From NCBI GenBank assembly GCA_031409655.1, contig JANNXQ010000032.1, forward strand, positions 35,984-99,983: DNA of 64,000 nt, written 5' to 3'. The notes under the pieces were generated by a model, which was not told where the DNA came from, did no database searches, and was given only the letters and a program-made list of their open reading frames with translations. Of this stretch, positions 22,198 to 55,804 are shown in pieces. The first letter of the stretch is position 1; each line of letters begins with the position of its first letter. The translations under genes were made by a program, and so were the position numbers. This DNA is from Chthoniobacteraceae bacterium (GTDB lineage: Bacteria; Verrucomicrobiota; Verrucomicrobiia; Chthoniobacterales; Chthoniobacteraceae).

Positions 22198-25100
22198 TCA
22201 CGGTTTTTTCAGCGACTCCAGCCAAGCCAGCAAGTTTGCGAGGTCCGCTGGCGTGAATGCGTTCAGCAAGCCTTCGGGCATCATTGATTGCTCGCGAGTG
22301 CCGCGCTCGGTGATGTCCGCCTTTTCGACGAGGGTCGTCTGCCCGGCGACATTGCGCAGATCGAGGCTGTCGCCGCCTTCCCGCGTGACGAACCCTTCGG
22401 TCTGCTCGCCTTTCTTCGTTTTCACCCAGACGGTCTCGAAACCTTGCGCGAGCTTGGCGCCTGGCTTGAGGATGCTCTCGGTAAGGGCGGCGCGGTCGTA
22501 GATTTTCGCGACGGCGGAAAGGACCGGGCCTTTCGGCGGCTCGTCGGCACTCACGGTGTGGCACGCGATGCAGCCGGCGCGCAGATACAGCTCCTGCCCG
22601 GCCTTGGCGTCGCCGCCCTTTTGCACGGCGGCGAAGACCTCCTCGTATTTCATCGTGCCGATCGTCGGCATTGCAGTGGTCGATTCGGAAAGGCCGAGCG
22701 CCTGGTAGGCGAAGAGCGCGGCTTCGGCGACGGCGTTGTTCGGGTCTTTGAGATGCGCCTTCACCTGATCGGCGAACGACTTCGCCTTCGTCTGTGCGAT
22801 GACGCCGAGCAGGCTCGCCGTCCCTTCGGGTTTTGCCCACAGCTTCTTCACGGCTTCCTGCGCGTAATCTCGCTCTTTGCCTTTCGAGACGGTGCTCGTG
22901 GCGAGGTTCACGAGGATGATTTGCGCGAGCGTGCGCTTCGCGGCGTCGCTGCCGAGCGCGAGGTTTTCGTAGGCGTAGAGGTTGTTCATCGCCGGTGCGG
23001 CGCGGGTGAAATCCTCGAAGGCCGCGGTGAGCGCGGGGTGCGGAAGCGGGTGACCGGCGAGTGGACTGAACGCGGCAACCGCGGCGTCGAGTGCGGCGAT
23101 GCGCAATTCCTCCACGCCGATCTTCTGCTGATTGCCGCGCTGGATCAGGCGCATGGCGCGGGCGCGCAATTCGGGCGCTTCGTCGGGGCGGTTCACGATC
23201 GCCACTGCGGCGACGAGTCCGGCGGCGGGCAGCACGTTATCCGGCGAAAACATGCCTTCGAGGGCGGTGAGCTTCGCGGGCGTGTCGTTGCCGGCCTTGG
23301 CGAGCATCAGGTCGATGAGGCCGGGATACCCGACCTTTGTCTGATACATCCGCTCGACGAGCCACTTCGCGTCCTCCTCGTTGCTCGCTTCGAGCGCGGT
23401 CTTCAGCGCGGCGGTGATCTTCGGCGTCTCGCTCCACGCGATGGGTTGATAGACCGGGCCGCTCGTATCGGGCCGCGTGCCCCACCACACTTTCGGGTCT
23501 TCGTAAGGCGCGTCCTGATTCGCGAGGCGGCAGAGGGCGTTGAGGAGGCCGCGGCGGAGTCCGGGGAGCGCGCCCGTCCCGGGCGCTGGCGACGGCGTCC
23601 CGCCGTCGCGGACTTTCGTGGACGCGTCCTCCGCAGTTCGAGGCGCATCAGTGCTTGGCGCGCCCTCGGAATTTCGTCGCGGCGGGACGCGACGACCAGC
23701 GCCCGAGACGGGCGCGCTCCCCAGACGCGCAATCAAGCCGTCCACGACTTCGGGCGTGTAGATCCCGTAGAGCGCGCGCAAGGCGCCGGGCTGCACTTTC
23801 GCGTCGGCGGAATCGAGCGAGGCGAGGCAAGGCTGCACCGCCTTCAATTCGCTGAGCGCCCGCACGGCGAGGTGCGCGACGACCGGATCGGCGTCGGCGA
23901 CGAGCGGGAGGATGGCGGGCGCGGCGTCGGTCTTGTGCATCCGGCGTAGCGCGGTGATCGCGGCGGCGCGGACGCGGGGGTTTTGATCGGCAAGAAACTG
24001 GCTCAGCGGCTTTGAGGGAATGTCGGTTGTCTTGCCCGCGCCGTCGGCCAGCGCCCGCAGCGTGTATTCCACAGTGTCGATCTTCTTTAGCATGTCCGCG
24101 AAGACCGCTGTGCCACCAGGCGCGAGCTTGTGCTTGATTTGCACGGCGGTGTAGAGCGCGGCGATCCACTGCTCGACGGGCCGATTCACTTTCGCTGGCG
24201 CCATCGCCATGCCGAGCATCATTCCAATGCGACCGGCCGAGTTCGGATCCTTCGCGCGGCGGATGAACTCGCGTTGTCCGGCCTGCCGCAGGGTCGCGCT
24301 GTCCGAGAGAATCGCTTCAAGCAGCGTGTCGTCACCGGCTTTTGCAAAATCCGGCACCTCCAACTTCGGCTTATCCTTCTTCACCACCCGCAGAACATAC
24401 CCCGCGTTCGGCCCGTTGTAGTTGAAGGTCGCGCCTTCCCAGCTCGTGATGAAGAGCGCGCCGCTCGCGTCCACGTCCATGTCGGTCGGGCGCGTCAGGG
24501 CGATCCACTTGTTCTGCTTCACCGGCGGGCGTTTGTGCGTCGAGGTCGGGTCGAGATCGGCGCCGGGCTCGCCCACTTTCCAGCCGGCGCCGTCGGGCAC
24601 GAGGTCGTCGTGATACATGATCCCGCCCGCGCCCCACTCGACGGTGAAGAGGCCCTTCGGCAGGCCGGGTTCATCGAGCCAGAGCGCGCCGCAGGGGCTG
24701 CCGCCGCCGAGATCGGCGAGCGCGTCGAGGCGGTCTTCGGGGAAGTTTTTGAAGAGATACGGGTAGCCCAGGTGCGCGCCGGGTGGGACGAAGCTCAGGC
24801 GCACGTTCCAGCCGCCGCCGTCGTTGGTGTTGTCGCGGGTGAAAAGGTCGAGCGTGGGGGAGACGGCCGCGTCGTAGATATTCCGCTGGCCGCGCGAGAC
24901 GATCTCAAAGCCGGTGCCATCGGGCCGGATGCGCACGATGCCGCCGCCGCGCATTGAGAGCGTGGTGCCGTCTTTCGCTCGCGCCTTCACGAAGCCGTAG
25001 TCGCCCACGGCGATGTAGATGAAGCCGTCGATCGCAAGCCGGCAGCCGTTGGTGGTGTGATCCGCGCCGCGGAAGGCGAGGTCAAAGCCGAGGCCAGTGA

Positions 25101-25638
25101 GGATGTCTTCCTGCTTGTCGGATTTCCCGTCGCCGTCGGTGTCGGTGTAGGCGGTGAGGTTCGGCGGGTGCATCACATAGAGCGTGCCGGGGAGATCAAG
25201 GAGCAGGGGCGCCCCCGCCCCGTGTTGCGGACTCGGGGCGAGGGCGCCCCTGCTCCTTGGCACGCCGTCCCAGATGACCCCGCGCGGGCTCTCCATCTCG
25301 GCGAAGGTCTTGAACTCATCCGCGCGACCGTCGCCGTCGGTGTCGCGCATCCGCACCACTTTGCCGGGCTTCTTCTCCGCCGTGTTGCGATCGCGTCCGA
25401 GCGAGCCGTTTTCGTCGATGGCGACGAAGATGGTGCCGTCGATCGCAGCGCTCACGCTAGTCGGGTAGCCGCCCATCGGCGGCAGTGCGAAGACGGTGGC
25501 CTCGTAGCCCTCCGGCAGCGTCACGGTCGTGAGGATTTCGGCCTCGGTGCGCACTGGCAGTTCGCCGTTTTTCTTTTGGGCAAAAGCGGGGGCGGCGAGG
25601 AGCGCGGCGGAGAGCAGGGTTAAGGCGGGTGATTTCAT
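22198..25638 (-). CDS. PVC-type membrane-bound dehydrogenase-like / heme-binding CxxCH protein (beta-propeller + HEAT + cytochrome c) carrying two in-frame palindromic insertions
   Basis: Signal peptide MKSPALTLL..AFA; DTDGDG.AD, DGFIYIAVGD.G, G.RNIYD, HEAT-like repeats, CIACH, LTESILKP, QSMMPEGL. Confidence 0.9.
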   Translation of the reverse strand: MKSPALTLLSAALLAAPAFAQKKNGELPVRTEAEILTTVTLPEGYEATVFALPPMGGYPTSVSAAIDGTIFVAIDENGSLGRDRNTAEKKPGKVVRMRDTDGDGRADEFKTFAEMESPRGVIWDGVPRSRGALAPSPQHGAGAPLLLDLPGTLYVMHPPNLTAYTDTDGDGKSDKQEDILTGLGFDLAFRGADHTTNGCRLAIDGFIYIAVGDYGFVKARAKDGTTLSMRGGGIVRIRPDGTGFEIVSRGQRNIYDAAVSPTLDLFTRDNTNDGGGWNVRLSFVPPGAHLGYPYLFKNFPEDRLDALADLGGGSPCGALWLDEPGLPKGLFTVEWGAGGIMYHDDLVPDGAGWKVGEPGADLDPTSTHKRPPVKQNKWIALTRPTDMDVDASGALFITSWEGATFNYNGPNAGYVLRVVKKDKPKLEVPDFAKAGDDTLLEAILSDSATLRQAGQREFIRRAKDPNSAGRIGMMLGMAMAPAKVNRPVEQWIAALYTAVQIKHKLAPGGTAVFADMLKKIDTVEYTLRALADGAGKTTDIPSKPLSQFLADQNPRVRAAAITALRRMHKTDAAPAILPLVADADPVVAHLAVRALSELKAVQPCLASLDSADAKVQPGALRALYGIYTPEVVDGLIARLGSAPVSGAGRRVPPRRNSEGAPSTDAPRTAEDASTKVRDGGTPSPAPGTGALPGLRRGLLNALCRLANQDAPYEDPKVWWGTRPDTSGPVYQPIAWSETPKITAALKTALEASNEEDAKWLVERMYQTKVGYPGLIDLMLAKAGNDTPAKLTALEGMFSPDNVLPAAGLVAAVAIVNRPDEAPELRARAMRLIQRGNQQKIGVEELRIAALDAAVAAFSPLAGHPLPHPALTAAFEDFTRAAPAMNNLYAYENLALGSDAAKRTLAQIILVNLATSTVSKGKERDYAQEAVKKLWAKPEGTASLLGVIAQTKAKSFADQVKAHLKDPNNAVAEAALFAYQALGLSESTTAMPTIGTMKYEEVFAAVQKGGDAKAGQELYLRAGCIACHTVSADEPPKGPVLSAVAKIYDRAALTESILKPGAKLAQGFETVWVKTKKGEQTEGFVTREGGDSLDLRNVAGQTTLVEKADITERGTREQSMMPEGLLNAFTPADLANLLAWLESLKKP
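23563..23722. repeat. REPIN-like palindromic element (family B), in frame within a CDS
   Basis: GGGGAGCGCGCCCGTCCCGGGCGCTGG ... CCAGCGCCCGAGACGGGCGCGCTCCCC; same arm at 25845-25900. Confidence 0.9.
25197..25259. repeat. REP-like palindrome (family A), in frame within a CDS
   Basis: CAAGGAGCAGGGGCGCCC ... GGGCGCCCCTGCTCCTTG, 63 bp; homologous copies at 31432 and 44244. Confidence 0.9.
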
Positions 25639-25694
25639 CGAGGTGCGGTTTGCAAGGATCGTCGCGACTGGAAAGTGAACGACGTGGCGGCGGT

Positions 25695-25901
25695 TCCGGG
25701 GAGCAGGCGCGTCTCGCGGGTGGGTTTCGGCGTCTCGCCGGAACGAACTTTTGCAGTCGTCCGGTTCGGCAAGAGCTCCCCGCCTCGAAGAACATGCCGG
25801 ATTTCGGCACGGAGGTGAAGCTTCTGAGCGACCGGACGGCGTGGGAAGTTCGTGGCGGCGAGACGCCGCCACCAGCGCCCGGGACGGGCGCGCTCCCCGG
25901 A
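25695..25901. repeat. REPIN-like palindromic element (family B), intergenic
   Basis: TCCGGGGAGC ... CCAGCGCCCGGGACGGGCGCGCTCCCCGGA with internal GGCGTCTCGCC/GGCGAGACGCC arms. Confidence 0.85.
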
Positions 25902-25923
25902 GCTTCCGGTCGATCGCCTTGGG

Positions 25924-27624: not shown

Positions 27625-27631
27625 CGCCGCC

Positions 27632-29031: not shown

Positions 29032-29706
29032 ATGCCCGACGATGACGAGCAATCCGACGAAAAGGTCTGGGACGAATATGACTGGGAGCGTTTTCTCCAG
29101 CAGCAAGACCTGAAGACGGAGAAGTACATGGAGCTGATGGAGAGGTACATCGACGACCCCAACCGGGATCAAATCATCGCCCGCGAGATGGGCTGGTATC
29201 ACCTGCTCGACAAAGACGGCGCCAAATGGGCTGAGGAAGTGGACTCAAATTTTGCCGACGACGCCTCCTGCGAAGCGGCCGACGAGTCGGAGGAAGGGGA
29301 CGCGGCGCATGAGGGCGAAGAGGGCTTCGAGGTCCACCCGCTCTACCAGGCGTCCTTTGCGCTCACGGTCTGGATCGATCAGCTTTTTGAGGAAAACCGC
29401 ACGCTGCACAGTCACCCCATCGCGGTGAAGCTCTCGACGCAGGCGGCGGTGGCCAGCGCCAAGCTCGCTGCCGCTTTGAGCGATGACTATGTGGATGAGA
29501 TCGGGATGACCATCGCCTACCTGAAGCGCGCGCTGAAGGCCATCAGCCTCAGCATGGAGGCCGCGACGCAGCTCCGGAATGACGTCCACCTCGACCCCGA
29601 CCGGCACGGCACGCTGAATCAGCGCCTCTTCCAGATCCGCGACGGGATCATCGAGCTCATGGGCACGTATCGGTCCGAATTCCGGCGCCGGTACGACGGG
29701 CAGTGA
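29032..29706 (+). CDS. Conserved-looking acidic hypothetical protein
   Basis: Host codon usage; WDEYDWERFL...IAREMGW and IAYLKRALKA helical segments; no family recognised. Confidence 0.8.
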   Translation: MPDDDEQSDEKVWDEYDWERFLQQQDLKTEKYMELMERYIDDPNRDQIIAREMGWYHLLDKDGAKWAEEVDSNFADDASCEAADESEEGDAAHEGEEGFEVHPLYQASFALTVWIDQLFEENRTLHSHPIAVKLSTQAAVASAKLAAALSDDYVDEIGMTIAYLKRALKAISLSMEAATQLRNDVHLDPDRHGTLNQRLFQIRDGIIELMGTYRSEFRRRYDGQ

Positions 29707-29829
29707 GCAGGTGGATGGCGCGCTCCGAGCGCCATGGCAAACCACCGCGCGGCAGCGCCTACTTTGAATCAGCGCCTGGCGGCGAGATTGGTACCCATGG
29801 CGCTCGGAGCGCGCCATCCACCGGGGCCC

Positions 29830-30471
29830 ATGAATAACCCCCCGGTCCCTGCGTCCAAAGGTCAGCCGTCCGAGGCCGAAGACGTGCTCTCTGGTCCCCC
29901 AGACCTCGAGCTCGTCGCCCGAGCCCAGGCCGGCGATACCCACGCTTTCAATGACCTCGTCACCCGCTACCGCAGCCGCGCCTTTGCCATGACCTACAAT
30001 ATGGTCCGCAACGAACAAGACGCCTGGGACCTCGCCCAGGACGGCTTCCTGAAGGCCTGGAAGTCCATCGGGCGCTTTCGCGGGCAATCGTCCTTTTACA
30101 CCTGGCTCTACCGCATTCTCATGAATGTGAGCATCGACTGGCTGCGCAAAAAGCACATCCAAGGCGGCACCGAATTCGACGATCAGATCGGGCTGCGGAA
30201 TATCGCGCCCGGCGCCACCACCGCACCGCGGGGCGAACTGGAGCCGGCGGAGAAAATCTCGGACGGCGAGATCCGCACCCGGATCGATGCGGCCATCGAG
30301 CGCCTCTCGCCCGAGCACCGCACCGTGATCGTCATGCGCGAGATCGACGGTCTGGAGTATTCCGAGATCGCCGAGCAGGTCGGCTGCTCCATCGGCACGG
30401 TGATGTCCCGCCTTTTCTACGCCCGCAAAAAACTCCAAGCCATGCTCCGAGACGTCTATGAAAGCATTTGA
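29830..30471 (+). CDS. ECF sigma factor (RpoE-like)
   Basis: DAWDLAQDGFLKAW..FRGQSSFYTWLYRI; region 4 YSEIAE...GTVMSRLFYAR; start uncertain. Confidence 0.95.
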   Translation: MNNPPVPASKGQPSEAEDVLSGPPDLELVARAQAGDTHAFNDLVTRYRSRAFAMTYNMVRNEQDAWDLAQDGFLKAWKSIGRFRGQSSFYTWLYRILMNVSIDWLRKKHIQGGTEFDDQIGLRNIAPGATTAPRGELEPAEKISDGEIRTRIDAAIERLSPEHRTVIVMREIDGLEYSEIAEQVGCSIGTVMSRLFYARKKLQAMLRDVYESI

Positions 30472-30976: not shown

Positions 30977-30980
30977 CGGT

Positions 30981-31431: not shown

Positions 31432-31497
31432 TTCAAGGAGCAGGGGCGCCCTCGCCCCGAGTATCTCCTTGGGGCGAGGGCGCCCCAACTCCTTGAA
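31432..31497. repeat. REP-like palindrome (family A), intergenic
   Basis: TTCAAGGAGCAGGGGCGCCCTCGCCCC ... GGGGCGAGGGCGCCCCAACTCCTTGAA. Confidence 0.9.
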
Positions 31498-37752: not shown

Positions 37753-39303
37753 TCACTCCTCCGCGGCGAGCGTCTCGAGGCGCGTGCCGATCAACCCGTG
37801 CAGGATGACCGTGCCGAAGAAGAGCGCGGCGATGAGTGGGATCAGCCCGCCGATATCGCGGAAGATCATCGTGACGACGGCGCTCGCGAAGATCTGCACG
37901 ACGAAGTTGATCCCGAATGCTGCGGCCAGGGCGCCGCGCTTCATCCAGAGTGAAAGCCAAGCCACGAAGTGCAGAAAAAAGAGCAGCTGCGCCAGTGCGT
38001 ATGCGCAGAAGAGAAACGCATTTGTCCCTGTGGTATCCAGATTGCGAATGAGGTCTGGCCAGACGAGGAGGGCGCCGAGCGCCGCGTAAGTCGCGGCAGG
38101 GATGAGCGTCGGGAGGCAGCCGAGAATTTTGCTGTAAGCGATCTGCCGAATGCTCATCGGCAGCGTCGCCAGCGAGGAGAGCGTCTTCCATTGCCGTTCG
38201 ATGCGGAAGACGCGGGCCGCGGCGAAAGCCATCTCCAGCGCGAGCACCGCCAGCATCCAGCCCAGCATCGTCCCGCCGATCTCATCCCAGTCTGACGGTC
38301 CGCCCCACCTCGTCGGCGAGAATCGCATGCTCGCGAAGGGCAGGATGTAGAGGCCGAACTTCGCCGCGATCGCAGTCTTCCCGCCCGCGACAAAGTAGAA
38401 ATCCTTCCACGCCAGAGCGCGATTCCACGCCCGCCCCGCACCCGTCCGGCGGAAGATCGACGTGCTCCGCGCCAGCGCGCCGCGCGACGGTCCGGCCTCG
38501 GCTTGCTCGTTGCAGAAAACATCGAAGACCGCCCACGCGAGCAGGAAGCACCCGGCGCCGAGCACGAGATTGCTCCCGATCTGCCAGCACCACGGACCTT
38601 CCGCAAAGCCAGTCCGCAGAATCTCCGTGAGCCGCTTGAAAGGCGACGCCTCCGAGATCCAGCCGGCGACCGTGTCCAGCGTCGTGACCCAGGGGGCGTC
38701 GCGCACCGTCGCACCGAAACGCCGCGCCAGCCCGGTGACGAAACTAACGACCGGCACGATCACAAAACCCACGATGAGCACCAGCGCGGTGAGCACTGCC
38801 GCCGCGCTGCTCCGGCGGCAGACGACGGAGCAGAGCAACGCCAGATTACTGAGGAAAACGATGAACGCACCCAGCGTGCAGTAGCAGGCGAGGATCTGGC
38901 CGACGCTCACGCCGCCGAGCGAGACGGCGAGCAGGGTGAAAGGAAACTGCGCGATTAGCAGGAGCAGCGCACCGAGCACGCGGCTGGTCGATTTTCCGAG
39001 GAGGATCGAGAGCGGGTTCAGATTCGTCATCCGCAGCAGGCCGAGGGTCATCTCTTCCTTTTCCTCCGTGATCGCGGACGAGAAATAACTCAGCCCCGCG
39101 AGGACGATGAAGCAGCAGTTGATCGTCATCACCGTCTGGAAAAAGCGCAGCCCTGGAGCATTCGACCAACCCATCTGCAACTGCGTAAAAGAGAGGAAGA
39201 GCAGGATCACAATGATCAGCCCGCTGCGCGCAAAGTAGGTGAGCTTTGCGCGGACATCTTCGCGCATGGACCGGGCGAAAAGAGCGAGGAGCGGGGAGGT
39301 CAT
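37753..39303 (-). CDS. ABC-2 type permease (module 2)
   Basis: ITEEKEEMTLGLL.MT.L....I.LGK; second repeat ERQWKTLSSL..LP; many TMs. Confidence 0.85.
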   Translation of the reverse strand: MTSPLLALFARSMREDVRAKLTYFARSGLIIVILLFLSFTQLQMGWSNAPGLRFFQTVMTINCCFIVLAGLSYFSSAITEEKEEMTLGLLRMTNLNPLSILLGKSTSRVLGALLLLIAQFPFTLLAVSLGGVSVGQILACYCTLGAFIVFLSNLALLCSVVCRRSSAAAVLTALVLIVGFVIVPVVSFVTGLARRFGATVRDAPWVTTLDTVAGWISEASPFKRLTEILRTGFAEGPWCWQIGSNLVLGAGCFLLAWAVFDVFCNEQAEAGPSRGALARSTSIFRRTGAGRAWNRALAWKDFYFVAGGKTAIAAKFGLYILPFASMRFSPTRWGGPSDWDEIGGTMLGWMLAVLALEMAFAAARVFRIERQWKTLSSLATLPMSIRQIAYSKILGCLPTLIPAATYAALGALLVWPDLIRNLDTTGTNAFLFCAYALAQLLFFLHFVAWLSLWMKRGALAAAFGINFVVQIFASAVVTMIFRDIGGLIPLIAALFFGTVILHGLIGTRLETLAAEE

Positions 39304-39448
39304 TTGGACTGCGGTGACTTGTCACCGCTTTGTGGTGGCGGAAACTTGTTTCCGGAGGTGGGGTCTGGCGGATCGCAGCGAATCTCCCGCCGCCACTGCG
39401 GACAAGTCCGCACCCCCACAAAGCGGCGACAAGTCGCCGCAGTCCAAA
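39303..39448. repeat. REPIN-like element (family C) TTTGGACTGCGG...CCGCAGTCCAAA
   Basis: Arms TTTGGACTGCGGTGACTTGTCACCGCTTTGTGG / CCACAAAGCGGCGACAAGTCGCCGCAGTCCAAA with two internal degenerate units. Confidence 0.9.
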
Positions 39449-39460
39449 GCGCGGCGGCTC

Positions 39461-39578
39461 GTTCGATGTTCGATGTTCGACGTTGGATGTTCGATGTTTG
39501 TCCTGACGCGCAGGTGGATGCCTTGCTGCACCGACCGAAGAACATCGAACGTCGAACACTGAACATCGAACATCGAAC
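39461..39578. repeat. Inverted heptamer element (GTTCGAT)n ... (ATCGAAC)n
   Basis: About five heptamers per arm; same unit at 49062 and 55650. Confidence 0.9.
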
Positions 39579-39592
39579 GGCCTTGGCCCCGC

Positions 39593-40567
39593 TCACGTCC
39601 GCACCCCCGGCTCGGTGAGGTCCATGAAGGCTTGGTTCAGATGCTTCACGTCTTCCTGGAAACTGACCACTTCGCCACCAGCGGTGAGCGCGGCCTGGAG
39701 GATGGCGTTCACCGGGAGTTGCGCGCGGTCGAAGGTGAGGGTGTAGCGGGCGGCGTGGCCATTTTCATTTGGCAGTGGCGGGGCGACGCGGGCCATGCCG
39801 GGCAGGAGGGAGAGCGCAGTGGCCGTGGCGGGATGTTCGGCGGCGAGCGCGAGCTGGTAGTTGGCAGTGGTGCCGTCGCCATTGGCAATCAGGCCGCGCA
39901 TGGTGCCGGTGTATTTCACGGTGCCGCGATCGAGGATCGTCACGTGATCGCAGAGCGTGGCGAGCTCGCTGAGGATGTGGCTGCTGATGAAGATGGTTTT
40001 CCCCAGCCGGCGCAGTTCTTCGAGGATTTCCATGAGCTCGATGCGGGCCCGTGGGTCGAGGCCGCTGGCGGGTTCATCGAGCAGGAGCAGATCGGGATCG
40101 TGGACGAGCACTCGGGCGAGGCTCACGCGCTGTTGCATCCCGCGGGAGAGACCGTTGATGAGGTCGTCTTTTCGGCCCGTCATGTCCGTGAGCGCGAGCA
40201 CGTCGCCGATGGTTTTGTCCCGCTGCGCCTGGCCCAGCCCGTAGGCCGCGCCGAAGAAGTCCAGGTACTCGAAGACGGTCATCTGCCGGTACATCGAGAA
40301 GTGATCCGGCATGAAGCCGATCTTGCGCCGGACTTCATTGCGCCGCGCCACGAGATCCTGGCCGAAGATGCCGATCGACCCCGCTTGCGGCTTGAGCAGC
40401 GTGGCGAGGACCTTGAGCGTGGTGGTCTTGCCCGCGCCGTTCGGGCCGACGAAGCCGTGGATGGATTGCCGCTGCACGGTGAAGGTCACGCCGGCGACGG
40501 CTTGGTGGGTCTTGTAGCGATGGCGCAGGTCGCGGATGTCGATGGCGGGAGTCGGATCGGTGATCAT
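39593..40567 (-). CDS. ABC transporter ATP-binding protein (module 2)
   Basis: GPNGAGKTT, LSRGMQQR, LLLDEPASGLDP, SSH. Confidence 0.95.
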   Translation of the reverse strand: MITDPTPAIDIRDLRHRYKTHQAVAGVTFTVQRQSIHGFVGPNGAGKTTTLKVLATLLKPQAGSIGIFGQDLVARRNEVRRKIGFMPDHFSMYRQMTVFEYLDFFGAAYGLGQAQRDKTIGDVLALTDMTGRKDDLINGLSRGMQQRVSLARVLVHDPDLLLLDEPASGLDPRARIELMEILEELRRLGKTIFISSHILSELATLCDHVTILDRGTVKYTGTMRGLIANGDGTTANYQLALAAEHPATATALSLLPGMARVAPPLPNENGHAARYTLTFDRAQLPVNAILQAALTAGGEVVSFQEDVKHLNQAFMDLTEPGVRT

Positions 40568-40605
40568 TAAGGGCTTACATATTCATCCGACTCCGGCTCG
40601 TTTTG

Positions 40606-40690
40606 GAACCGCGAAGCGGCGAAGGAGCGAAGGTGGAAGAGACGATGGTATCCAAAGCATTCTCTTCGCTCCTTCGCTCCTTCGCGGTTC
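40606..40690. repeat. Inverted repeat (family D) GAACCGCGAAG-(GAGCGAAG)n ... (CTTCGCTC)n-CTTCGCGGTTC
   Basis: Arms 40606-40633 and 40664-40690. Confidence 0.85.
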
Positions 40691-40707
40691 ACACCCAAGT
40701 GCGGGCG

Positions 40708-42435
40708 TCATGGGCGGAAGATATCCTGCACGTAGAGCACGTAGCCATTCTCCTTGGTGAAACCCTCCCCGCGCATCCGGAAGCCTTCCGGCGCGCGGGC
40801 GAAGATCCAGAGCTGGCCTTGATCCGGCGGCAGCGGGCGTTGCGGGATGGATTGTTGAAAGCTCTCCGTCCCGCCAATCGCGCGGGCCTGGAGCAAGGGG
40901 AGCATTGCGCGCAGTGAATCTGCGGCCAGCTTTTCCGCGGACTCGCCGAAATAGGATTGCGTCAGGGGCTGAAGGACGTCTTTCCCAAAAGCCATCGACA
41001 TCGAACTCGAACCAGAGGCGACGAGTGACCAGTGCGCATCCTTCCGCTCCATGGCGTACATGTAATCGCCGTGGCGCAGATGCATCGCTTTTACTTCGCG
41101 GGGAAAACCCGGCCCCGGCGAGACCGTGAACTCTTTCACCGAGGCTCCGTTCAACTCCCACTTCCCGACCGTCACGCTGGTGTCGTCGCCCTGCATCACG
41201 GCGCGATGCACGAAGGGCCGTGCCGAGTAGAGCGGGATGTCAATCAGGAAGCGGCCTTCGCGTCCGTTGAAGATTCGCCCGCGCACGCCATCCGATTGCG
41301 GGACCGCCGAGTAGTAGCTCGCCGACGATTCGTGGCGCAGCGTGTAGAGATCGCCGCGGGTGGCAAAGGCGCTGATCCACTGCATCGTGTCGCAGCGTCC
41401 GCCGCCAAGCGCGCGGGCGATGGTGAGCGAGTGGACCGTCTGACTTTCCCCGTAGCCGCGCCGGCCGACGACGGCAAAAAGCCAGCCAAAGACCGCGACC
41501 GTCCCGAGGAAGAGGCCGATGGAGAGCCGGTAATCGAGGCGGCGTGCCCAGCGAAACTGCGCCGGCCCGACGAGGAGCAGATAGACGAAGGCGAAGGAAT
41601 TCAGCAGCCACCAGCTCACCTTCGGACGGGTGAGGGACGCGAGCCGGGTGAAGAGGGTTTGCTCAAGGTCATAGATCACGGGCTCCTGGCCCTTCTTGAG
41701 TTCCGGCGCGGAAAATCCGCGATCGGAGAAGAGCGTGTCACCCGCGTCCCGCCGCGTCTTTGGCACGCGAAGCACCGTGCCCGCGCCGACGCGCCCCCAC
41801 TCACCCTCGATATTCAGCACCGCGAGCGCTTCGTCGAATTGCGGATACGCACCGCCCGCGCCATGCAACACCGCCACCACGCCACCGCGGCGGAGCCAGT
41901 CCAGGAAAGCGTCACGACGTGCGGCTTCCCAGCGCGGCTGGTAGTCGAGCGCCACGGCGTCGAGTCCGTCCGTCACCGCCACACTCGTCGGAAAGAGATC
42001 GTCGGGAAACGCGCGGAGGCTGCCCGCGCCGGCGAAGGGATTCGCCGGATCGGTGAGCAGCACCCGCGCGGGCGGCGCGCTCGCCGGGCTCGGAATCTCC
42101 GTGCTCTCCCTCGGCCCGCGTCCCCAGTTCAGCCGAAACTCCGTGCCCTCCCGCACGAAGATCTGAAATTGCACCCACCGCTCCTGCTGCGCCGCGAGAT
42201 ACACCGGCTGCACGACTTCCGCGTCGCGCACATTGAGCCCCCGACTTTCCTCCAGCGCCACTTCGCCATCGAAAGGCCGCGCGCTCGGATTCGCGATCAG
42301 GATCGAAACCGGGTTGAAGCGATTCGGCACCGTGCGTCCGTCGAAGCCCCAGAAGGTCTGCCGCACCTCCAGCGCCCGCGCCGGCAGATCCAGCAGGAAA
42401 AAGAGCGCAACGATCAACGGCCCGAGGCGGAGCAT
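40708..42435 (-). CDS. Secreted/membrane accessory protein of ABC module 2 (GATase-like segment + 2 TM)
   Basis: Signal peptide from ATG 42435 (in-frame GTG 42495 also possible); DGLDAVAL...WLRRGG; YLLLVGP TM hairpin; paralog of 45262-47121. Confidence 0.8.
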   Translation of the reverse strand: MLRLGPLIVALFFLLDLPARALEVRQTFWGFDGRTVPNRFNPVSILIANPSARPFDGEVALEESRGLNVRDAEVVQPVYLAAQQERWVQFQIFVREGTEFRLNWGRGPRESTEIPSPASAPPARVLLTDPANPFAGAGSLRAFPDDLFPTSVAVTDGLDAVALDYQPRWEAARRDAFLDWLRRGGVVAVLHGAGGAYPQFDEALAVLNIEGEWGRVGAGTVLRVPKTRRDAGDTLFSDRGFSAPELKKGQEPVIYDLEQTLFTRLASLTRPKVSWWLLNSFAFVYLLLVGPAQFRWARRLDYRLSIGLFLGTVAVFGWLFAVVGRRGYGESQTVHSLTIARALGGGRCDTMQWISAFATRGDLYTLRHESSASYYSAVPQSDGVRGRIFNGREGRFLIDIPLYSARPFVHRAVMQGDDTSVTVGKWELNGASVKEFTVSPGPGFPREVKAMHLRHGDYMYAMERKDAHWSLVASGSSSMSMAFGKDVLQPLTQSYFGESAEKLAADSLRAMLPLLQARAIGGTESFQQSIPQRPLPPDQGQLWIFARAPEGFRMRGEGFTKENGYVLYVQDIFRP

Positions 42436-42491: not shown

Positions 42492-44318
42492 TCACCGCCG
42501 GAGGTAGTGATCCGCGCGAGTCAGGCACAGGGAGCGGATGAAAAGAAACACGTGAAAGTAGAAGAGGAAGTTGATGACGATCAGCGGCCAGACGCTTCCC
42601 AAGGGCGTGCCAAGGCTGCGGATTTCCGATCCCTCATTGAGCACGAGCAGGCAACCGGGCGAGAGGAGGTAAAGATAGTCGAGCGTTTCCCGGGGGAGGG
42701 AGAGCGGCAGCTTTTCCAGACCTAGCGCGAGGAGCAGCGGCACGCCGCCGCACCAGGCAGCGAGGGCTCCGACGGCGGTGGCGATGGCCCGGAAACGGGT
42801 GCGCGCGCGGAGTCCGATCCAGAGTGCGAGCCACGAGAACAGCGGGAGATAGATGACAACGCTGAGCACCACGCACACGGCGTAGACGGTTGGTCCGTCG
42901 CTCCCGATTCGGAAATCTCGTTGGCGGAACCCTGAGAGGTAACCCCACTCATTGCTCCACTCCGCGACGCCCAGCGTGAGCAGCGGAATCCCGAGCACGA
43001 GCGCCATCCGGCGGAGCGCGTGGGCTTTCTCGGCCACGATTTTGGCGGCGCTCAGCGGCGTGGTGAGGAGCACGTCGAGCGATTGCTGCACGCGCTCGGA
43101 GACGATGGTGTTGGCCGATTGGACGGAAAGAAAAAGCGCGGCGACGATCCAAGCGAGGACGGTGAAAATCGTGAAGGTGTCGTTGTCGCGTCCGGAGTCG
43201 CCGACACCTGCGACGAACCACACACCGCCGACGAGCACCTCGAGCACGAGGAGGATACGCACGAGGTGGTGTGGCTGGCCGAGTCCGGTGCGCGTCGTCT
43301 CGCGCCAGGAGATGGGAGCATACACGGGCAGCGCGTCCCGGGCGCGCAGCACCAGCACATTGCCGAAGCGCCGATTGCCGCGCGTCATCACGGCATCGAG
43401 CCAGCGGAAAACGCGCCGGAACCAATTGCCCGGCGGCGCAAAAGCGCGCCGCACCAAACCGACTCGGGCGACCACCATCAGCAACGCGATTGAAACGAGC
43501 AGCCCGGCACTTTTGAAGAGTACCGCCGGGATCACCGCATCGCCGCTCGCGCTTAATATCCGCAGCAGATCTTCGCGGAGGTGGACGAGGAGGAGCAGGG
43601 GATTGAAGTGAGCCCCAACGTCCACACCGATCGCGAAGCTGGAATTGCGCATCGCGAACAGCAGAAAGATCGGCCCGGCATAGAGCAGGATGGCCAAGAG
43701 ATACGTTAGCACGAACGCCGAAACCGTGGTCCGGCACCACGCCGAGCAGGCCAGGGCCAGCGCGCCGAGCTGCAGGCAGGCGAGCGCGAGCACCCAGACG
43801 CACATGAAGAGCTCCCGGAGCTCAAGACCGCCGAGAGAATATGCCACGGCACCGAGCGGCACGCCGAGGAGGAGGAAGGTGAACATCGGCACGAGCCCGC
43901 CGAGATATTTCTGGAGCACGATTTGCCACGGGCGCAGTTCGGTGAGGAAGAGCAGCACCAGCGAGTCGCGCTCTTTTTCCTCGGTGATCCGCCCGCACAT
44001 CAGCGCGGGGAGGAAGAGCGCGATGGCGCCGAGTTCGAGATAGAGCAAGAGCTCGAAAAGCTGGCGGCCGGCACCCAGCATCCCGGTGGTGGCGGTCGTT
44101 CCCGCCCAGAAAAAATTTGGCACCGAGAGCGCGAACAGACCGTAGAGCAGCACGGCAAAGAGAACGCGCAGCACGTAGGTGCGGCGCCGGGCGGCGGTCT
44201 CGGTGAGTTCCTTCGTGAGCAGCGGGAGCGAGAAGAGCGCGCGCAAGGAGAAGGGGCGCCCTCGCCCCGTCGCTGCTGAAACTGGGGGCGGTGGCGCCCC
44301 TGCTCCTTGGGCGGTCAC
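42492..44318 (-). CDS. ABC-2 type permease (module 1)
   Basis: PLLTKEL...RRRTY, ITEEKERDSLVLL.LT, IVSERVQQSLDVLLTTPL; GTGA-coupled start. Confidence 0.85.
   Translation of the reverse strand: MTAQGAGAPPPPVSAATGRGRPFSLRALFSLPLLTKELTETAARRRTYVLRVLFAVLLYGLFALSVPNFFWAGTTATTGMLGAGRQLFELLLYLELGAIALFLPALMCGRITEEKERDSLVLLFLTELRPWQIVLQKYLGGLVPMFTFLLLGVPLGAVAYSLGGLELRELFMCVWVLALACLQLGALALACSAWCRTTVSAFVLTYLLAILLYAGPIFLLFAMRNSSFAIGVDVGAHFNPLLLLVHLREDLLRILSASGDAVIPAVLFKSAGLLVSIALLMVVARVGLVRRAFAPPGNWFRRVFRWLDAVMTRGNRRFGNVLVLRARDALPVYAPISWRETTRTGLGQPHHLVRILLVLEVLVGGVWFVAGVGDSGRDNDTFTIFTVLAWIVAALFLSVQSANTIVSERVQQSLDVLLTTPLSAAKIVAEKAHALRRMALVLGIPLLTLGVAEWSNEWGYLSGFRQRDFRIGSDGPTVYAVCVVLSVVIYLPLFSWLALWIGLRARTRFRAIATAVGALAAWCGGVPLLLALGLEKLPLSLPRETLDYLYLLSPGCLLVLNEGSEIRSLGTPLGSVWPLIVINFLFYFHVFLFIRSLCLTRADHYLRR
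44244..44309. repeat. REP-like palindrome (family A), in frame at the permease N-terminus
   Basis: CAAGGAGAAGGGGCGCCCTCGCCCC ... GGGGCGGTGGCGCCCCTGCTCCTTG, 66 bp. Confidence 0.85.

Positions 44319-49051: not shown

Positions 49052-49055
<4 letters not shown>
47187..49055 (-). CDS. BatA-like N-terminus + vWA domain membrane protein
   Basis: PLIAFYFLK...PSL.LW N-terminal motif; MIDAS DISASM, FSDG; C-terminal EWW TM. Confidence 0.92.
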
Positions 49056-49170
<115 letters not shown>

Positions 49171-49174
<4 letters not shown>

Positions 49175-50058: not shown

Positions 50059-50064
50059 GATTGC

Positions 50065-51066
<1,002 letters not shown>

Positions 51067-51117
51067 GGGTGGTGGGCGTTGCGACGAGGGTCAGGTTCTC
51101 GGGGCTTGGGTTGGGGA

Positions 51118-54117
51118 TCAATGTTGATCGTCGGTGCGCTTCCGCTTCCGGGCGAGGAGGCGCTCGGTGGTGGATTGCGGTTCGGCAGGCGAAGGGTCGG
51201 ACGGTTTTACTGGTGGTGGCGCGGCGGGTTTCGGCGGCGCGCTCGGAGCCGATGGCGCGACTGGCGGCGACACTTCGCGCTGCGTCTCCAGCGTGGCTTT
51301 CACTTTCGCTTTCCGCTGCAAAAGCGCGCCCATCGTCTTGCCGCTCTCGTCCTGTTTACGGCGGAGGAAGGTGTCGCGGATGGCGGGCCAGTCGAGCTGG
51401 ATGCGGCGCACGGCGACGTCGAGCGGGATGAGGCAGGCGAGGAGGATCAGGAACCAATCGAAGACCGGGCGCGTGCTCTCGCGCGTGGTGCGCTCCGGGT
51501 GAAAAAGGTCGAGGTCGTTGGCCGTGAGCACGCGGCCGCCGGTGCGTTCGGCGATCTGCTTCAGCACGATGGGGTCGCTCCGGAAGCGCAGATACTCGGG
51601 CGAATACGGCACGGCGAATCCGCCCATCGCCTGTTCGGGTTTCTCGCTGCCCGCGCTGGCCGCGGCGGCGATGACCTGGTAGCGGCCTTTGCCCCAGAGC
51701 GGGAACTGCCCCTGATACCGCCGCGGACCGATCTGCCGGAGCGGCACCGACACGCTTTCACCGCGCGGTCCGGAGACGCGGGCTTCCATCTCGAGAAAAC
51801 GATCGCCCGCCGCGAAGTCTTCGACCGACACAACCCCCGTGCTGCCCGCCGCGGAGCTGCGCAGGCGCAGATCGGTCTTCTGCTCGACGCGCGAAAGTTC
51901 GGTGACGAGCTGCCGCACGAAGGCACGATATTTGTCCCACCCAATCCAATCCTGCGCCCATGCCGGACCGAGGTCGCTGGTCCATGCGGCCGCCGCGCCG
52001 AGACCGAACCGCCAGACCGCGAGCAGGGGGTCGGGCGAGTCCGCGGGATCTTTTCCCGCCGGCACGCGCAGGATGGTGGTGGCGCGCGGCTTGATGGTCG
52101 TGAGCACGTAGCCGCGCAACTGCGGCAGCGCGTCGATGCCTTTCAAAATCGGCGACGGAAACTCGACCTCGGGCGTGAAGACCTTGTTTTGCAGCATTGA
52201 GCGTTTGAGCGTCTTCGCTTCCTTGATGAAGATGCTCGGGAGCTGATTCGGATCTGCGGGAAAATAATAACGGCCGCCGGTCTGGCCGGCGATGGCTTGC
52301 ATGATCGAGATGTCCTGCCCGCCGTGCGGATTGATCGCGATCATCGAGACGCTCACCTTCGCATCCACGAACTCCTGCACGAGCGCGGGCGTGGGCGGCG
52401 ATGGATCGCCGTCGCTGATCACGATGAGGTGTTTCGTAGCCGCGTCGCTTTGCACCAGACCGGCGAGACCCAGCTTCATCGGCGTGTTGAAATCCGGCAT
52501 GTCGCCCGGCTCGGCTTTATTGATCAGCGGGACGAGGCGTTCGTATTCCCCGGCGGGCGTGAGCGGGAAGATCCAGTTGTAACCCGTGGGACTGCCGCCA
52601 CCCCACGCGTAGGCGATGAGCCCCACTTCGTCCTGCGCGCCGAGCACGCGGATCGCTTCCTTCGCGATGCGTTTCGCCCAAGTGTTGCCCTCGGCGAATT
52701 CGCAGGTGTGCAGGATGATCGCGAGCGCGCCCTTTGGCAGCACCTTCTTCTGCTTCACATCCATCTCGACGGGCAGCGCCTCCTCGACCGCGGTGCGATG
52801 GAAGCCGCCCGGCCCGTAACTCTGCGGTCCGCCGAGCATCAGGAAGCCGCTGCCATTATTGTACACCGCGTCGCGCAGCGCTTGAAATTGCACGGGGTCG
52901 AAGGCGTCCGCGGGCGCGTTCGCGAAGACGATGAGGTCGTAAGGCAGCAGCGACAGCGCATCGCGCGGAAACTCGTAAGCCATCCGCACCTGCACCACGC
53001 GTTCGCTTTCCTTCATCGCCTGCACCAGCGGTTCCCAATCGCGCGCATCGCCGCGCGCTTCGGTGACGACGAGCACCTTGCCCTCGCCGCGCAGAAAGAG
53101 ATCGCCGATCGCGACGTTATTCTCCGCCCAGCCGTCCTCGCCCTTCGGCACGGCGATCGTGGCCACGTATTCGTAAAAGCCCGGCTCGCGCAGATAGAGC
53201 GGCAGCGCGAAGCGATTGCGCCCCGCCTCGAACTCCACGTCTTTCTCGAAGATCGTCTTCCCATTCTCCGAAAGGGTGAGTTTGCCAGCGCCTTTCGTCA
53301 GCGCCTGGAGCAGCACATTCGCCTCGTAAGTCTCGCCCGCCTTGACGACGCGCGGGAGGTCGAGCCGCTCGAGCCACACTTCCTTTTCGTAGGCGAAGGC
53401 GATGGGCAGCACGTCCACCGCGATCCCGCGGGATTTGAGCGCATCGAGCTGCGCGGCCACGGCGCTCTCGGTTTCGTTGCCATCGGTGATGAGCACGATG
53501 CGCCCTTGATTCTGCTCCGGCAGCATCGCCGCGGAGAGGCTCAGGGCCTTGGCGAGATCGGTGCCGTCCTTCGCGATGCGCGAGTTCATCGCTTCAAAAG
53601 GGAAGCTCGGACGCGGCGGCAATTCGACCGCGGCATCGCGCCCGAAGACGACGAGTCCCGCTTCGTCCTTCGGCGGTTTTTTCCCCACGGTTTGCATCAC
53701 CCACGCCAGCGCTTGATCGCTCACCTTCGCGCCCATCGAGTCGGAAACATCGAGCGCATAGACGATGGAAAGCGCATCCGAGCGCCGCACCGCGCGCGGC
53801 TCGGCGAGGAGCACGATGAAGAGGGCGGCCAGCGTGAATCGCGTGATCAGCGCCACGAGCGCGCGCCCTTTTCCCAAGCCGGAAAAGCCCGCGAGATGCA
53901 GCCACCAGATCCACGGCAGCGCGAGGGTGAGCCAGAAAGCCGGACGATAGGTGAAGCGCAGCAGCCCGCGCATTTCCGCGACCACACAGGCGCCGAGGAA
54001 GAGCGCGAGGAAGATGATCAGCGGCAGCGCGGCGCGCCAGGTGATGGGCGTGCGGGCTGCGGGCACCATCGTCCGCAGGAGGCGGAGCCGTGCCGGGGAG
54101 AAAATGCTGCTGGCCAA
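51118..54117 (-). CDS. vWA + glutamine-amidotransferase-like + second degenerate vWA membrane protein
   Basis: DVSDSM, ITDGNET; YDLIVFAN...GFLMLGGPQSYG.GG; ISDG; W.FGLG; start TTG 54117 or ATG 54069. Confidence 0.9.
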   Translation of the reverse strand: MASSIFSPARLRLLRTMVPAARTPITWRAALPLIIFLALFLGACVVAEMRGLLRFTYRPAFWLTLALPWIWWLHLAGFSGLGKGRALVALITRFTLAALFIVLLAEPRAVRRSDALSIVYALDVSDSMGAKVSDQALAWVMQTVGKKPPKDEAGLVVFGRDAAVELPPRPSFPFEAMNSRIAKDGTDLAKALSLSAAMLPEQNQGRIVLITDGNETESAVAAQLDALKSRGIAVDVLPIAFAYEKEVWLERLDLPRVVKAGETYEANVLLQALTKGAGKLTLSENGKTIFEKDVEFEAGRNRFALPLYLREPGFYEYVATIAVPKGEDGWAENNVAIGDLFLRGEGKVLVVTEARGDARDWEPLVQAMKESERVVQVRMAYEFPRDALSLLPYDLIVFANAPADAFDPVQFQALRDAVYNNGSGFLMLGGPQSYGPGGFHRTAVEEALPVEMDVKQKKVLPKGALAIILHTCEFAEGNTWAKRIAKEAIRVLGAQDEVGLIAYAWGGGSPTGYNWIFPLTPAGEYERLVPLINKAEPGDMPDFNTPMKLGLAGLVQSDAATKHLIVISDGDPSPPTPALVQEFVDAKVSVSMIAINPHGGQDISIMQAIAGQTGGRYYFPADPNQLPSIFIKEAKTLKRSMLQNKVFTPEVEFPSPILKGIDALPQLRGYVLTTIKPRATTILRVPAGKDPADSPDPLLAVWRFGLGAAAAWTSDLGPAWAQDWIGWDKYRAFVRQLVTELSRVEQKTDLRLRSSAAGSTGVVSVEDFAAGDRFLEMEARVSGPRGESVSVPLRQIGPRRYQGQFPLWGKGRYQVIAAAASAGSEKPEQAMGGFAVPYSPEYLRFRSDPIVLKQIAERTGGRVLTANDLDLFHPERTTRESTRPVFDWFLILLACLIPLDVAVRRIQLDWPAIRDTFLRRKQDESGKTMGALLQRKAKVKATLETQREVSPPVAPSAPSAPPKPAAPPPVKPSDPSPAEPQSTTERLLARKRKRTDDQH

Positions 54118-54148
54118 GGGGTGAAAGCAGGCTCGAAGGCGGCCCCGA

Positions 54149-54436
54149 CTACCGCGCGAGCAGTTGGAGGAAGCACACGATGATCCGCCGCGAAAGACTC
54201 TCGTCGAGCCATCCGAACGGACGCAACGCAGTGCGCCGGATGGGCCGCGCGAGATCGGTGCAGGCGATGAGCGTCTCGCGACCCCAGCGCACTTCCACGC
54301 GCAAGGCCGTGAGCGCGACGCCGGATTTCAGCGGGCACACCAGCACCGTCGGCAGTGCCGCCAGCGCCTCGTCCTGCAAGGCGACGAGATTCGGCACGGC
54401 ACCTTTCGCCGTCGAGCAGTAGAGCGCCAGCCTCAC
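54149..54436 (-). CDS. CcdB/PemK-fold type II toxin-like protein
   Basis: P.LVALQDE.L..LPTVLVCPL...VRWGRETLIACTDL..PI resembles CcdB; GTGA-coupled to the antitoxin. Confidence 0.7.
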   Translation of the reverse strand: MRLALYCSTAKGAVPNLVALQDEALAALPTVLVCPLKSGVALTALRVEVRWGRETLIACTDLARPIRRTALRPFGWLDESLSRRIIVCFLQLLAR

Positions 54437-54696
54437 GCTTCGTGGACGGGAAACTCGTCGTTGACCGCGAGCGTCTGACGGCACACGGCGTCGGTGTACT
54501 GCTCGCCCACGGTGTCCGCAAAGCGGGCGCGCTCGCGACGGGCTTCCTCCCGGTCGATGAGTTCCTGCACCCAGACCGAACGCGGCGAATCCCCTCGCAG
54601 CGCATCAATCTTCCGGTACGCCTCGAGGCTCAGGGTGAGCGTCGCGCGACCCGCGGCAGCGACCGCTTTTCGCGGCGACTTTTTTGCGACTTTCAT
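54433..54696 (-). CDS. Ribbon-helix-helix antitoxin-like protein
   Basis: 87 aa; ATLTLS...KIDALRG..PRSVWVQELI RHH pattern, acidic C-terminus, directly upstream of the toxin. Confidence 0.7.
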   Translation of the reverse strand: MKVAKKSPRKAVAAAGRATLTLSLEAYRKIDALRGDSPRSVWVQELIDREEARRERARFADTVGEQYTDAVCRQTLAVNDEFPVHEA

Positions 54697-54702
54697 GCGC
54701 GC

Positions 54703-54731
54703 AACGTGCCTGCCGCGGAAGGTGGCGTCAA
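54703..54731 (-). promoter_or_regulatory. Putative leaderless sigma70 promoter of the TA pair
   Basis: TTGACG-17 nt-CACGTT-6 nt-ATG; the -35 overlaps the NHL gene stop. Confidence 0.5.
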
Positions 54732-55804
54732 GGTGCGCCGCCCGGCAGGCGGAGCGCGACGATGCGGCGGTTTTTCGTATCAGCGACGAAGACGCGGCCC
54801 CGTGCGTCGATGGCGAGCCCCCACGGCGTGCCAAACTCGCCTTCGCCCATGCCGCTGCGGCCGAACTGGCCGAGCAGCCGCCCGGCGAGACTCACCTGGG
54901 AAAGGCGACCGGCGCCGTATTCGACGATGTGCAGCGTGCCGTCGGGGGCGGGCGCGATGTCGTAAGGGAGATTGAAGGTGAGGGCGTTTCCATTTTCGCC
55001 GAGCAGGCCGAGAAATGCGCCGGCGTCGGTGAAGATGAGGACGCGGTTGTTGATCGCATCGGCGACGAAGAGCCGGCCGTCGATCCACGAGAGTCCCGAC
55101 GGGCGCTGAAATTGCCCCAGCCCGGTGCCGAAACTGCCGAAGCTCGCGAGCCACTCGCCTTCGCGCGTGAATTTCTGCACGCGATCGTTCCCTCCGTATT
55201 CGCAGATGTAGAGATTCTCCGCGGCGTCCTTGCAGATCCCCACGGGATAGAAAAATTCGCCGTTCGCCGAGCCCTTGCGTCCGATGTCTTTCAGCCACGT
55301 CCCGTGCGCATCGAACCAGACCACGCGATGATAGTGCGTATCGCAGACCACGACGCGGCCATCGCGCAGGACCACGATTCCCTCGGGCTTTCCGACCGAT
55401 ACCTCGAGCATCTGCCACTGCCGCCGCAGCGCATCGTCCGGGCCGTAGATGAGCACGCGCCCGGCGGTGTCGAGCACCGCGAGTTCGCCGTCATTGCCCG
55501 TGGCCACGCTGCGCGGTGTGGGGAGCGAGGCGCCGTCGGGCGGGAGGTTCCAGGTCTTCCATTCGCGCGGCTGGAGCACGGGTGTGTGGTCGCTCCGCCG
55601 GCAGCTCGTGAAGGTGAAGCAAAGCGCGAGAGCCACGATGAGCGGAGCCGTTCGATGTTCGATGTTCGACGTTCGATGTTCGATGTTTTCCGTTGGAAGC
55701 GGCCGCATTCGCGAACTGGCAAACATCGAACTGGCAAACATCGAACGTCGAACATCGAACATCGAACATCGAACCAACCACCCGAACGCTTGCGACCACT
55801 TCAT
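54728..55804 (-). CDS. NHL-repeat beta-propeller lipoprotein with a heptamer repeat in its N-terminus
   Basis: G...GEF.YP.GI, DRVQKF, GQFQRP.G, VADT.N.RI repeats; lipobox FTSC; ATGA-coupled start. Confidence 0.88.
   Translation of the reverse strand: MKWSQAFGWLVRCSMFDVRRSMFASSMFASSRMRPLPTENIEHRTSNIEHRTAPLIVALALCFTFTSCRRSDHTPVLQPREWKTWNLPPDGASLPTPRSVATGNDGELAVLDTAGRVLIYGPDDALRRQWQMLEVSVGKPEGIVVLRDGRVVVCDTHYHRVVWFDAHGTWLKDIGRKGSANGEFFYPVGICKDAAENLYICEYGGNDRVQKFTREGEWLASFGSFGTGLGQFQRPSGLSWIDGRLFVADAINNRVLIFTDAGAFLGLLGENGNALTFNLPYDIAPAPDGTLHIVEYGAGRLSQVSLAGRLLGQFGRSGMGEGEFGTPWGLAIDARGRVFVADTKNRRIVALRLPGGAP
55650..55774. repeat. Inverted heptamer element (GTTCGAT)n ... (ATCGAAC)n in frame in the NHL gene
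   Basis: Same unit as 39461 and 49062. Confidence 0.9.

Follow-up and report, generated by a model that had tools for sequence, protein, structure and literature searches.

Hairpin-forming repeat elements in a 64,000-nucleotide stretch of DNA from a Chthoniobacteraceae bacterium (the window, part of contig C32) are in places crossed by short open reading frames (ORFs) that begin on the upstream gene's stop codon and end on the downstream gene's start codon. The frame of these relay ORFs is non-random and not a product of chance, both across the 6.85-Mb assembly (306 contigs, about 95% complete) and at a junction compared between relatives from two phyla. With a probability of roughly 0.7, we attribute this to purifying selection for translational coupling, which would filter the insertions of many hairpin families in a genome without Shine-Dalgarno signals. 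An initial annotation of the window had mentioned purifying selection as a caveat to its own reading, and that caveat has become the best explanation.

The hairpins of the window lie where the initial annotation had placed them, its families A-D being matched through their coordinates. The 12 that were folded all have z of −6.9 to −12.9 against dinucleotide shuffles, and they are members of genome-wide families of 3 to 73 loci each; an Rfam search of window positions 17000-57000 returned no match. The features at coupled junctions are as follows.

39300-39596, minus strand: relay ORF of 98 amino acids, whose GTGA overlaps the stop of an ABC ATPase gene and whose ATGA overlaps the start of a permease gene
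39303-39448 and 39460-39579: a TTTGGAG-family hairpin and an AACATCG heptamer hairpin, both spanned by the relay ORF at 39300-39596
40583-40711, minus strand: ORF of 42 amino acids crossing a hairpin with 9-mer arms (40606-40693), coupled at its 5' end only
44244-44310: CAAGGAG-family doublet, an N-terminal in-frame insertion of the permease gene at 42492-44318, the GTG of which shares 4 nt with the upstream stop
49052-49174, minus strand: relay ORF of 40 amino acids at the DUF58→BatA/VWA junction, with ATGA at both ends, crossing an AACATCG heptamer hairpin (49059-49162)
55650-55774: AACATCG heptamer hairpin that lengthens the N-terminus of the NHL-repeat gene at 54728-55804, with a 4-nt overlap between the ATG of this gene and the upstream stop

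The overlaps of the two relay ORFs are exactly 4 nt at both ends, as had been proposed. A third junction, described as nearly bridged, is so on one side: the 40583-40711 ORF is coupled at its 5' end, while at the 3' end a three-codon ORF stops 7 nt before the next ATG. The 98-amino-acid relay has no match in NCBIfam. Reading by hand added a bridging ORF of 44 amino acids (29703-29837, plus strand), which crosses a GGTGGATGG-family hairpin, overlapping by 4 nt upstream and by 8 nt at the ATG at 29830.

Genes and their starts were taken genome-wide from our own hexamer gene model (5263 genes, 86.5% coding), and a de novo search of the whole genome supplied the element catalogue: 749 hairpins, with 559 loci in 28 named groups. 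Frame was tested at the 212 of 294 co-directional junctions where the upstream stop falls between −12 and +45 nt from the element, and the null was the in-silico addition of 1 or 2 bases to the junction. A chain of −4 or −1 overlaps reaches the downstream ATG at 27 of these 212 junctions, compared with 5 and 4 after shifts of +1 and +2. Relays occupy 27 of the 34 relay-capable junctions where 12 would be expected (p=1.3e-7), and are found in both heptamer (16/19) and REP-type (11/14) capable junctions. The frame outcomes at coupled junctions, whose tabulation had been suggested as a check, are thus far from random. One-step relays number 25; they drop to 2-5 when ±1 or ±2 shifts are made at five positions and stay at 25-26 after +3. 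Out-of-frame run-on into the next gene is depleted, with 8 cases against 22 and 39 after the shifts. The same bias is present at a lower rate in the 1029 gaps without a catalogued element (37 of 55 capable gaps, 21 expected), and several of these control relays resemble decayed heptamer hairpins.

For the junction between the DUF58 and BatA genes, the window was taken together with 40 fetched regions and 79 named loci. Leaving out three loci without a placeable start, these gave 84 distinct scorable junctions: 32 direct overlaps, 1 uncoupled overlap, 8 short gaps, 7 gene-sized cargoes and 36 inserts of 55-382 nt. Across two phyla, 33 of the 36 inserts keep an unbroken coupled chain. One-step chains account for 31 of these, all with a gap of 1 mod 3 (an insert of 3n+2 counting one ATGA), and the remaining two are two-step with a gap of 0 mod 3; the chain fails in three inserts, and these are the ones with a BatA start other than ATGA. 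By rough clustering, in which kin are not independent, the 33 chains form about 16 clusters, 14 of them one-step (p≈1e-5). The fillings include several heptamers and REP doublets, and 15 of the 36 retain little or no hairpin. Empty orthologs, which the annotation had recommended looking for, were found and have a single ATGA overlap; filled sites have ATGA on both sides, some with 5-8 matching bases. Six of the seven gene-sized cargoes end on the BatA start, and they appear HicAB- and VapBC-like by eye. With about 16 separate fillings, this one orthologous junction constitutes a natural experiment in which hardly any insert persists unless an unbroken series of 4-nt or 1-nt overlaps is retained, and the pattern is population-level evidence of strong selection on translational coupling. 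The relay peptides at this junction are mutually unrelated and therefore do not represent a conserved class of new peptides.

Eight Schlesneria-group spacers at this junction (L137, L146, L148, L151, L156, L158, L159 and L161) are diverging, yet they have kept a length of 58 nt and an open relay frame, and some have changed the 5' overlap from 4 nt to 1 nt. Multi-step relays made of two or three mini-ORFs were seen in L079, L061 and L134, the ATGA overlaps of L079 coming from the repeat unit. The MoxR→DUF58 and DUF58→BatA junctions of relatives often hold small cargo genes that look toxin-antitoxin-like by eye (L055-L057, L059, L062, L064, L066, L076, L077, L079-L081, L083 and L109-L113), so these junctions are hot spots for several kinds of small element.

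At the ABC ATPase→permease junction at 44315, five relays (L062, L097, L102, L217 and L218) and one fusion were found among eight inserts of at least 80 nt. The 39300 junction has a direct 4-nt overlap in two empty orthologs (L070 and L071).

We propose that the 60-230-nt hairpin elements of many unrelated families are gene-less versions of small gene-bearing cassettes, namely the REP doublets of RAYT (REP-associated tyrosine transposase) genes, the inverted 6/7-mer arms of four-helix-bundle (4HB) genes and the 9-mer arms of GxxExxY genes. Elements and genes are observed in these pairings, and the RAYT, 4HB and GxxExxY proteins would be what mobilises the elements. Insertions would persist mainly between genes and, within genes, only as stop-free, frame-keeping inserts in tolerant loops. 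A strong hairpin at an ATGA stop/start overlap would cut translational coupling, and this loss is presumably costly because the genome lacks Shine-Dalgarno signals. Enrichment of such signals is absent genome-wide, SD-like motifs preceding 198 of 2996 called starts compared with 1911 of 22263 internal ATGs; the sequence upstream of called ATG starts is C-rich, with about 55% C at positions −2 and −1. Two outcomes would survive: an insert that is a multiple of three and extends the downstream N-terminus, or an insert of 3n+2 with ATGA at both ends, which creates a relay ORF. The ribosome would restart at the first overlap, melt the hairpin and restart on the downstream gene. We infer that relays are translated and in this way restore ribosome delivery to the downstream gene, the peptide itself being probably irrelevant. 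According to the part of a review that bears on this, structure just 3' of a stop reduces coupling efficiency and ribosomes unwind hairpins (PMC12548453).

Several observations argue for selection over a design built into the elements. The phase bias recurs in element-free gaps, many families arrive at one outcome, and a single family can yield a relay, a fusion or nothing. SD-like motifs are few, inserts within proteins model as low-confidence loops, and only 30 of 523 non-edge loci are internal to genes, all of them in frame. The remainder of these 523 comprise 24 N-terminal, 7 C-terminal, 1 weak and 461 intergenic loci, the last divided into 277 co-directional, 115 convergent and 69 divergent. 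Internal copies, about 6% of loci in a genome that is 86.5% coding, indicate that coding DNA is strongly avoided or purged.

Other results weigh against selection for coupling. Any coupling is absent from 164 of the 212 co-directional junctions. Only 4 of 10 inserts are coupled at the ABC→permease junction at 39300, and at the 40583 junction, counting relatives and the window, 2 of 11 are coupled and 9 are not. Upstream stops overlapped by ATG or GTG are enriched at element junctions (103/212, against 241/1029 in element-free gaps), which targeting of overlaps would also predict. In addition, the starts rest on our own gene model, and related genomes are not independent of each other.

The main alternative, which we regard as unlikely, is targeting of the kind associated with mycobacterial interspersed repetitive units (MIRUs): elements or helper proteins would recognise stop/start overlaps, duplicate the ATGA and carry a built-in phase. 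As part of this explanation, heptamer elements would be core-deleted copies of a doubly coupled 4HB cassette from which they inherited the relay frame. The enriched overlapped stops fit such targeting, as do the doubled ATGA and the matching bases at filled DUF58→BatA sites. So does an AACATCG-armed 4HB gene on contig C144, which is coupled at both ends, opening on the upstream stop and closing on a BatA-like start, its arms being translated; its relatives precede the same BatA-like gene at 16 loci, coupled at the 5' end in 13, at the 3' end in 13 and at both in 10. Arm units of the 4HB cassette vary between genomes, and in 11 of 13 testable genomes the arm unit is the most frequent among the four free heptamers searched, ranking second in the other two (permutation p=4.5e-5, with counts that include the cassette's own arms). 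This genome-by-genome agreement, which also speaks for targeting, implies that cassette and free copies evolve together. Against targeting, the shared stretch at the 25 relays is 3-6 nt, barely above the obligatory stop/start, and no target-site duplication beyond it was found genome-wide; selection alone requires ATGA twice. A single family is variable in its lengths and linkers, the phase is shared by inserts that are REP-type, decayed or toxin-antitoxin modules, and most copies are uncoupled. We know of no catalytic activity of 4HB proteins.

A bolder proposal, which we put forward tentatively, concerns the heptamer hairpins. These could be non-autonomous copies of a 4HB cassette that has no known transposase, is aimed at stop/start overlaps and has its arms renewed along with the free copies. 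Coupled junctions in bacteria of the Planctomycetes-Verrucomicrobia-Chlamydiae (PVC) group that lack Shine-Dalgarno signals would then be landing sites for tiny selfish cassettes, and relay mini-ORFs might outlive the hairpins as obligatory, sequence-free operon links, dozens per genome.

It seems very improbable that the relay ORFs encode functional small proteins, or that the hairpins have been domesticated as regulators (attenuators, RNase or gyrase sites), with the ORFs kept for their product. The frame has been kept for long, as in the eight Schlesneria-group spacers, which hold length and frame while diverging, and some junctions are filled in many lineages; against this, the peptides of one junction bear no relation to each other, the composition of all 25 relay ORFs is scored as non-coding, no family match was found, and 32 orthologous junctions have no insert at all. 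Chance can be dismissed as the least plausible account: GC-rich palindromes and stop-free heptamers do stay open in most frames (AACATCG and REP families in about 0.66-0.77) and NTGA overlaps occur often, with ATGA at about half of the called ATG starts, but the shift null retains these properties and gives 2-5 relays against 25, and 31 of the 33 capable DUF58→BatA inserts have a gap of 1 mod 3.

The range covered by the initial annotation contains genes for a PVC-type heme-binding protein and an aspartate kinase, together with a long minus-strand MoxR / DUF58 / BatA-VWA / ABC operon; the nearest named homologs of its BatA/VWA gene are from Chthoniobacteraceae, Verrucomicrobiota. Further features of the window are listed here.

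22198-25638, minus strand: gene for a PVC-type heme-binding CxxCH protein (DUF7133 / HEAT / cytochrome c) of 1146 amino acids, carrier of two in-frame inserts
23559-23726: REP-like double hairpin of the GGGGAGCG family (34 loci), in frame inside the 1146-amino-acid gene by ortholog comparison
25197-25259: REP doublet of the CAAGGAG family (71 loci), in frame inside the same gene
25695-25901: intergenic GGGGAGCG-family hairpin, upstream of the true start at 25638
29710-29822: GGTGGATGG-family REP hairpin between two plus-strand genes
31432-31497: intergenic REP doublet, assigned to the CAAGGAG family
17886-17998: AAACGCC-family heptamer hairpin (57 loci), outside the 22198-55804 range of the initial annotation

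The initial annotation had proposed a system resembling Rickettsia palindromic elements (RPEs) and had suggested a search for RAYT genes. RAYT-type genes flanked by two REP families of the window are indeed present in the genome. The CAAGGAG family (25197, 31432 and 44244) flanks a RAYT gene on contig C187 with 64 and 56 arm matches (NF047646, 82.8 bits; cut-off 80), and the GGTGGATGG family (29710) flanks a RAYT-like Y1 gene on C277 that scores 57 bits, under the same cut-off. For the GGGGAGCG and TTTGGAG families (23559, 25695 and 39303), the 13 Y1 genes of this approximately 95% complete assembly gave one weak match and none otherwise. AACATCG, GGATGAA and CGTCCT arms bracket 4HB genes (TIGR02436), and one 9-mer-arm family brackets a GxxExxY gene (TIGR04256); heptamer and 9-mer arms flank genes of these two kinds or nothing that we found, and not RAYT genes. 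No clear gene partner was found in the assembly for the families at 23559, 39303, 40606 and 17886, the last of which, AAACGCC, also has no 4HB partner there. As a control, 300 random genes were checked, and just 2 have the same family on both sides. We regard the CAAGGAG elements as new members of REP/RAYT and the other REP parts as probable ones. A single RPE-like family is rejected: the families are not related to each other, differ in their gene-bearing counterparts and rarely enter coding sequence.

Two further arrangements were noted among these families. At L174 (G000:C241:4794-5255) a GIY-YIG gene adjoins a hairpin of the TGTCATTCC family, which by eye is like the CGTC-type repeats that the relevant part of one study describes as having no dedicated transposase (PMC3733652). 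Hairpins of the GGTGGATGG family are repeatedly nested within elements with CTAGCAGC termini (G000:C53, C98, C179, C256, C261 and C272), possibly a composite miniature inverted-repeat transposable element.

Intragenic copies are denser in the window than in the genome at large. Four copies had been described as lying in frame within ORFs; those at 23563 and 25197 are internal to the 1146-amino-acid gene, and those at 44244 and 55650 are N-terminal insertions. The start assigned to the 1146-amino-acid gene, at 25872, lies within a hairpin and had to be corrected to 25638, where the gene model and ortholog matches put it. At site 25197 the hairpin is absent from all seven usable orthologs (L047 was left out and L050 ends short of the site). 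Six of eight orthologs are empty at site 23563, while in the same loop the other two, L046 and L050, hold REP-like hairpins of a different sort, likewise in frame. In an AlphaFold model of the protein (mean pLDDT 70) both inserts are low-confidence segments, residues 129-147 (site 25197) sitting between two intact beta strands and residues 647-691 (site 23559) between two intact helices. Comparison with paralogs revealed no clean duplication at three internal sites. That no gene is disrupted, as the annotation had stated, is borne out at the 61 of 294 junctions with paralog matches on both sides, where none is broken; two loci flagged as possible split genes are kinase and response-regulator gene pairs.

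At the starts of genes, the 44244 insert is 63 nt long and was placed just after permease codon 3, as judged from the empty ortholog L099. All five comparable junctions of the NHL-repeat gene (55650) are directly coupled, some with other inserts. N-terminal fusions number 21 among the 212 junctions, and by eye a signal-peptide-like stretch follows most of them; a division into fusions at hydrophobic N-termini and relays at other N-termini was not significant (p=0.19).

Three loci elsewhere in the genome extend these observations. A Y1/RAYT-type transposase domain lies in frame within alaS (L012, G000:C138), and another within a 1374-amino-acid ORF with flanking GTAG-type REPs (L009, G000:C102). 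Two near-identical gene copies (G000:C56:2279-2347 and G000:C224) differ by an in-frame loss of 54 nt that removed the hairpin and left a 15-nt footprint. This difference may reflect a strain mixture in the assembly, and such in-frame loss is a route to decayed relays.

Per a review passage, the idea of a relay in MIRUs has so far rested on sequence inspection (PMC12548453), and exact alleles are named here for a frameshift test. Selection for coupling would also account for two features of PVC genomes, a class of spurious-looking small 'hypothetical proteins' and odd N-terminal extensions. Through their link to 4HB genes, the heptamer hairpins suggest a testable origin of bacterial heptamer repeats that have been unexplained.

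In the literature searched, which left most subscription journals outside, we found no multi-family phase test, no pairing of a four-helix-bundle protein with inverted repeats or heptamers, nothing relevant on GxxExxY, and nothing on Shine-Dalgarno signals in Verrucomicrobia together with termination-reinitiation. Individual parts of the system do have published counterparts. RPEs are palindromes translated in frame inside proteins, and CGTC-type termini are described in the sections of one study that cover them (PMC3733652). The elements described here likewise insert in frame into protein-coding genes, but internal copies are a small minority of loci and the window families lack CGTC ends by eye. 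The same sections report intragenic in-frame REPs, most GTAG cases being in the verrucomicrobium Opitutus terrae, and REP doublets flanking tyrosine transposase genes with repeat-specific partners, termed REPtrons and TIRtrons (PMC3733652). Our REP doublets share both features, the flanking of RAYT genes and the in-frame intragenic copies; unlike them, the heptamer and 9-mer families have non-transposase partners, and junction coupling is not touched upon in those sections. Intergenic heptamer repeats of Beggiatoaceae form abundant runs by stop and start codons in SD-poor regions, according to part of a report (PMC4679880), and part of another places such repeats in Xanthomonas and Nostoc as well (PMC4692102). 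Heptamer runs next to stop and start codons are common to our system, whereas here the arms also bracket 4HB genes (TIGR02436 / PF05635) and track the free copies genome by genome; the text of PMC4679880 mentions neither 'helix bundle' nor 'intervening sequence', and that of PMC4692102 does not mention 'helix'. For the relays themselves, the closer comparator is the mycobacterial MIRU, not the RPE.

MIRUs are non-palindromic, target DTGA and form one conserved family with an intrinsic ORF. Here, about 28 families yield unrelated peptides, decayed inserts and toxin-antitoxin modules stand alongside palindromic elements, lengths vary, the element does not itself fix the relay frame, and multi-step relays occur. 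The likeness lies in an element-borne ORF coupled to its neighbours at −4 spacing: a MIRU is a repeat inserted at a start codon, with an ORF coupled at that spacing that limits harm downstream, as summarised in part of a review (PMC12548453). A second likeness is with integrons, where a short ORF across the attC stem-loop, and also ORF-11 in attI1, allows ribosomes to restart after termination and proceed to the next gene, with the peptide sequence being of little importance in the part of the account that treats it (PMC8876359). A short ORF also crosses a stem-loop in our case, although the setting is that of ordinary chromosomal operons and no integron context is proposed, no search aimed at one having been made. 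By analogy, the system of the window appears to work in the manner of MIRU and attC relays while being a member of neither.

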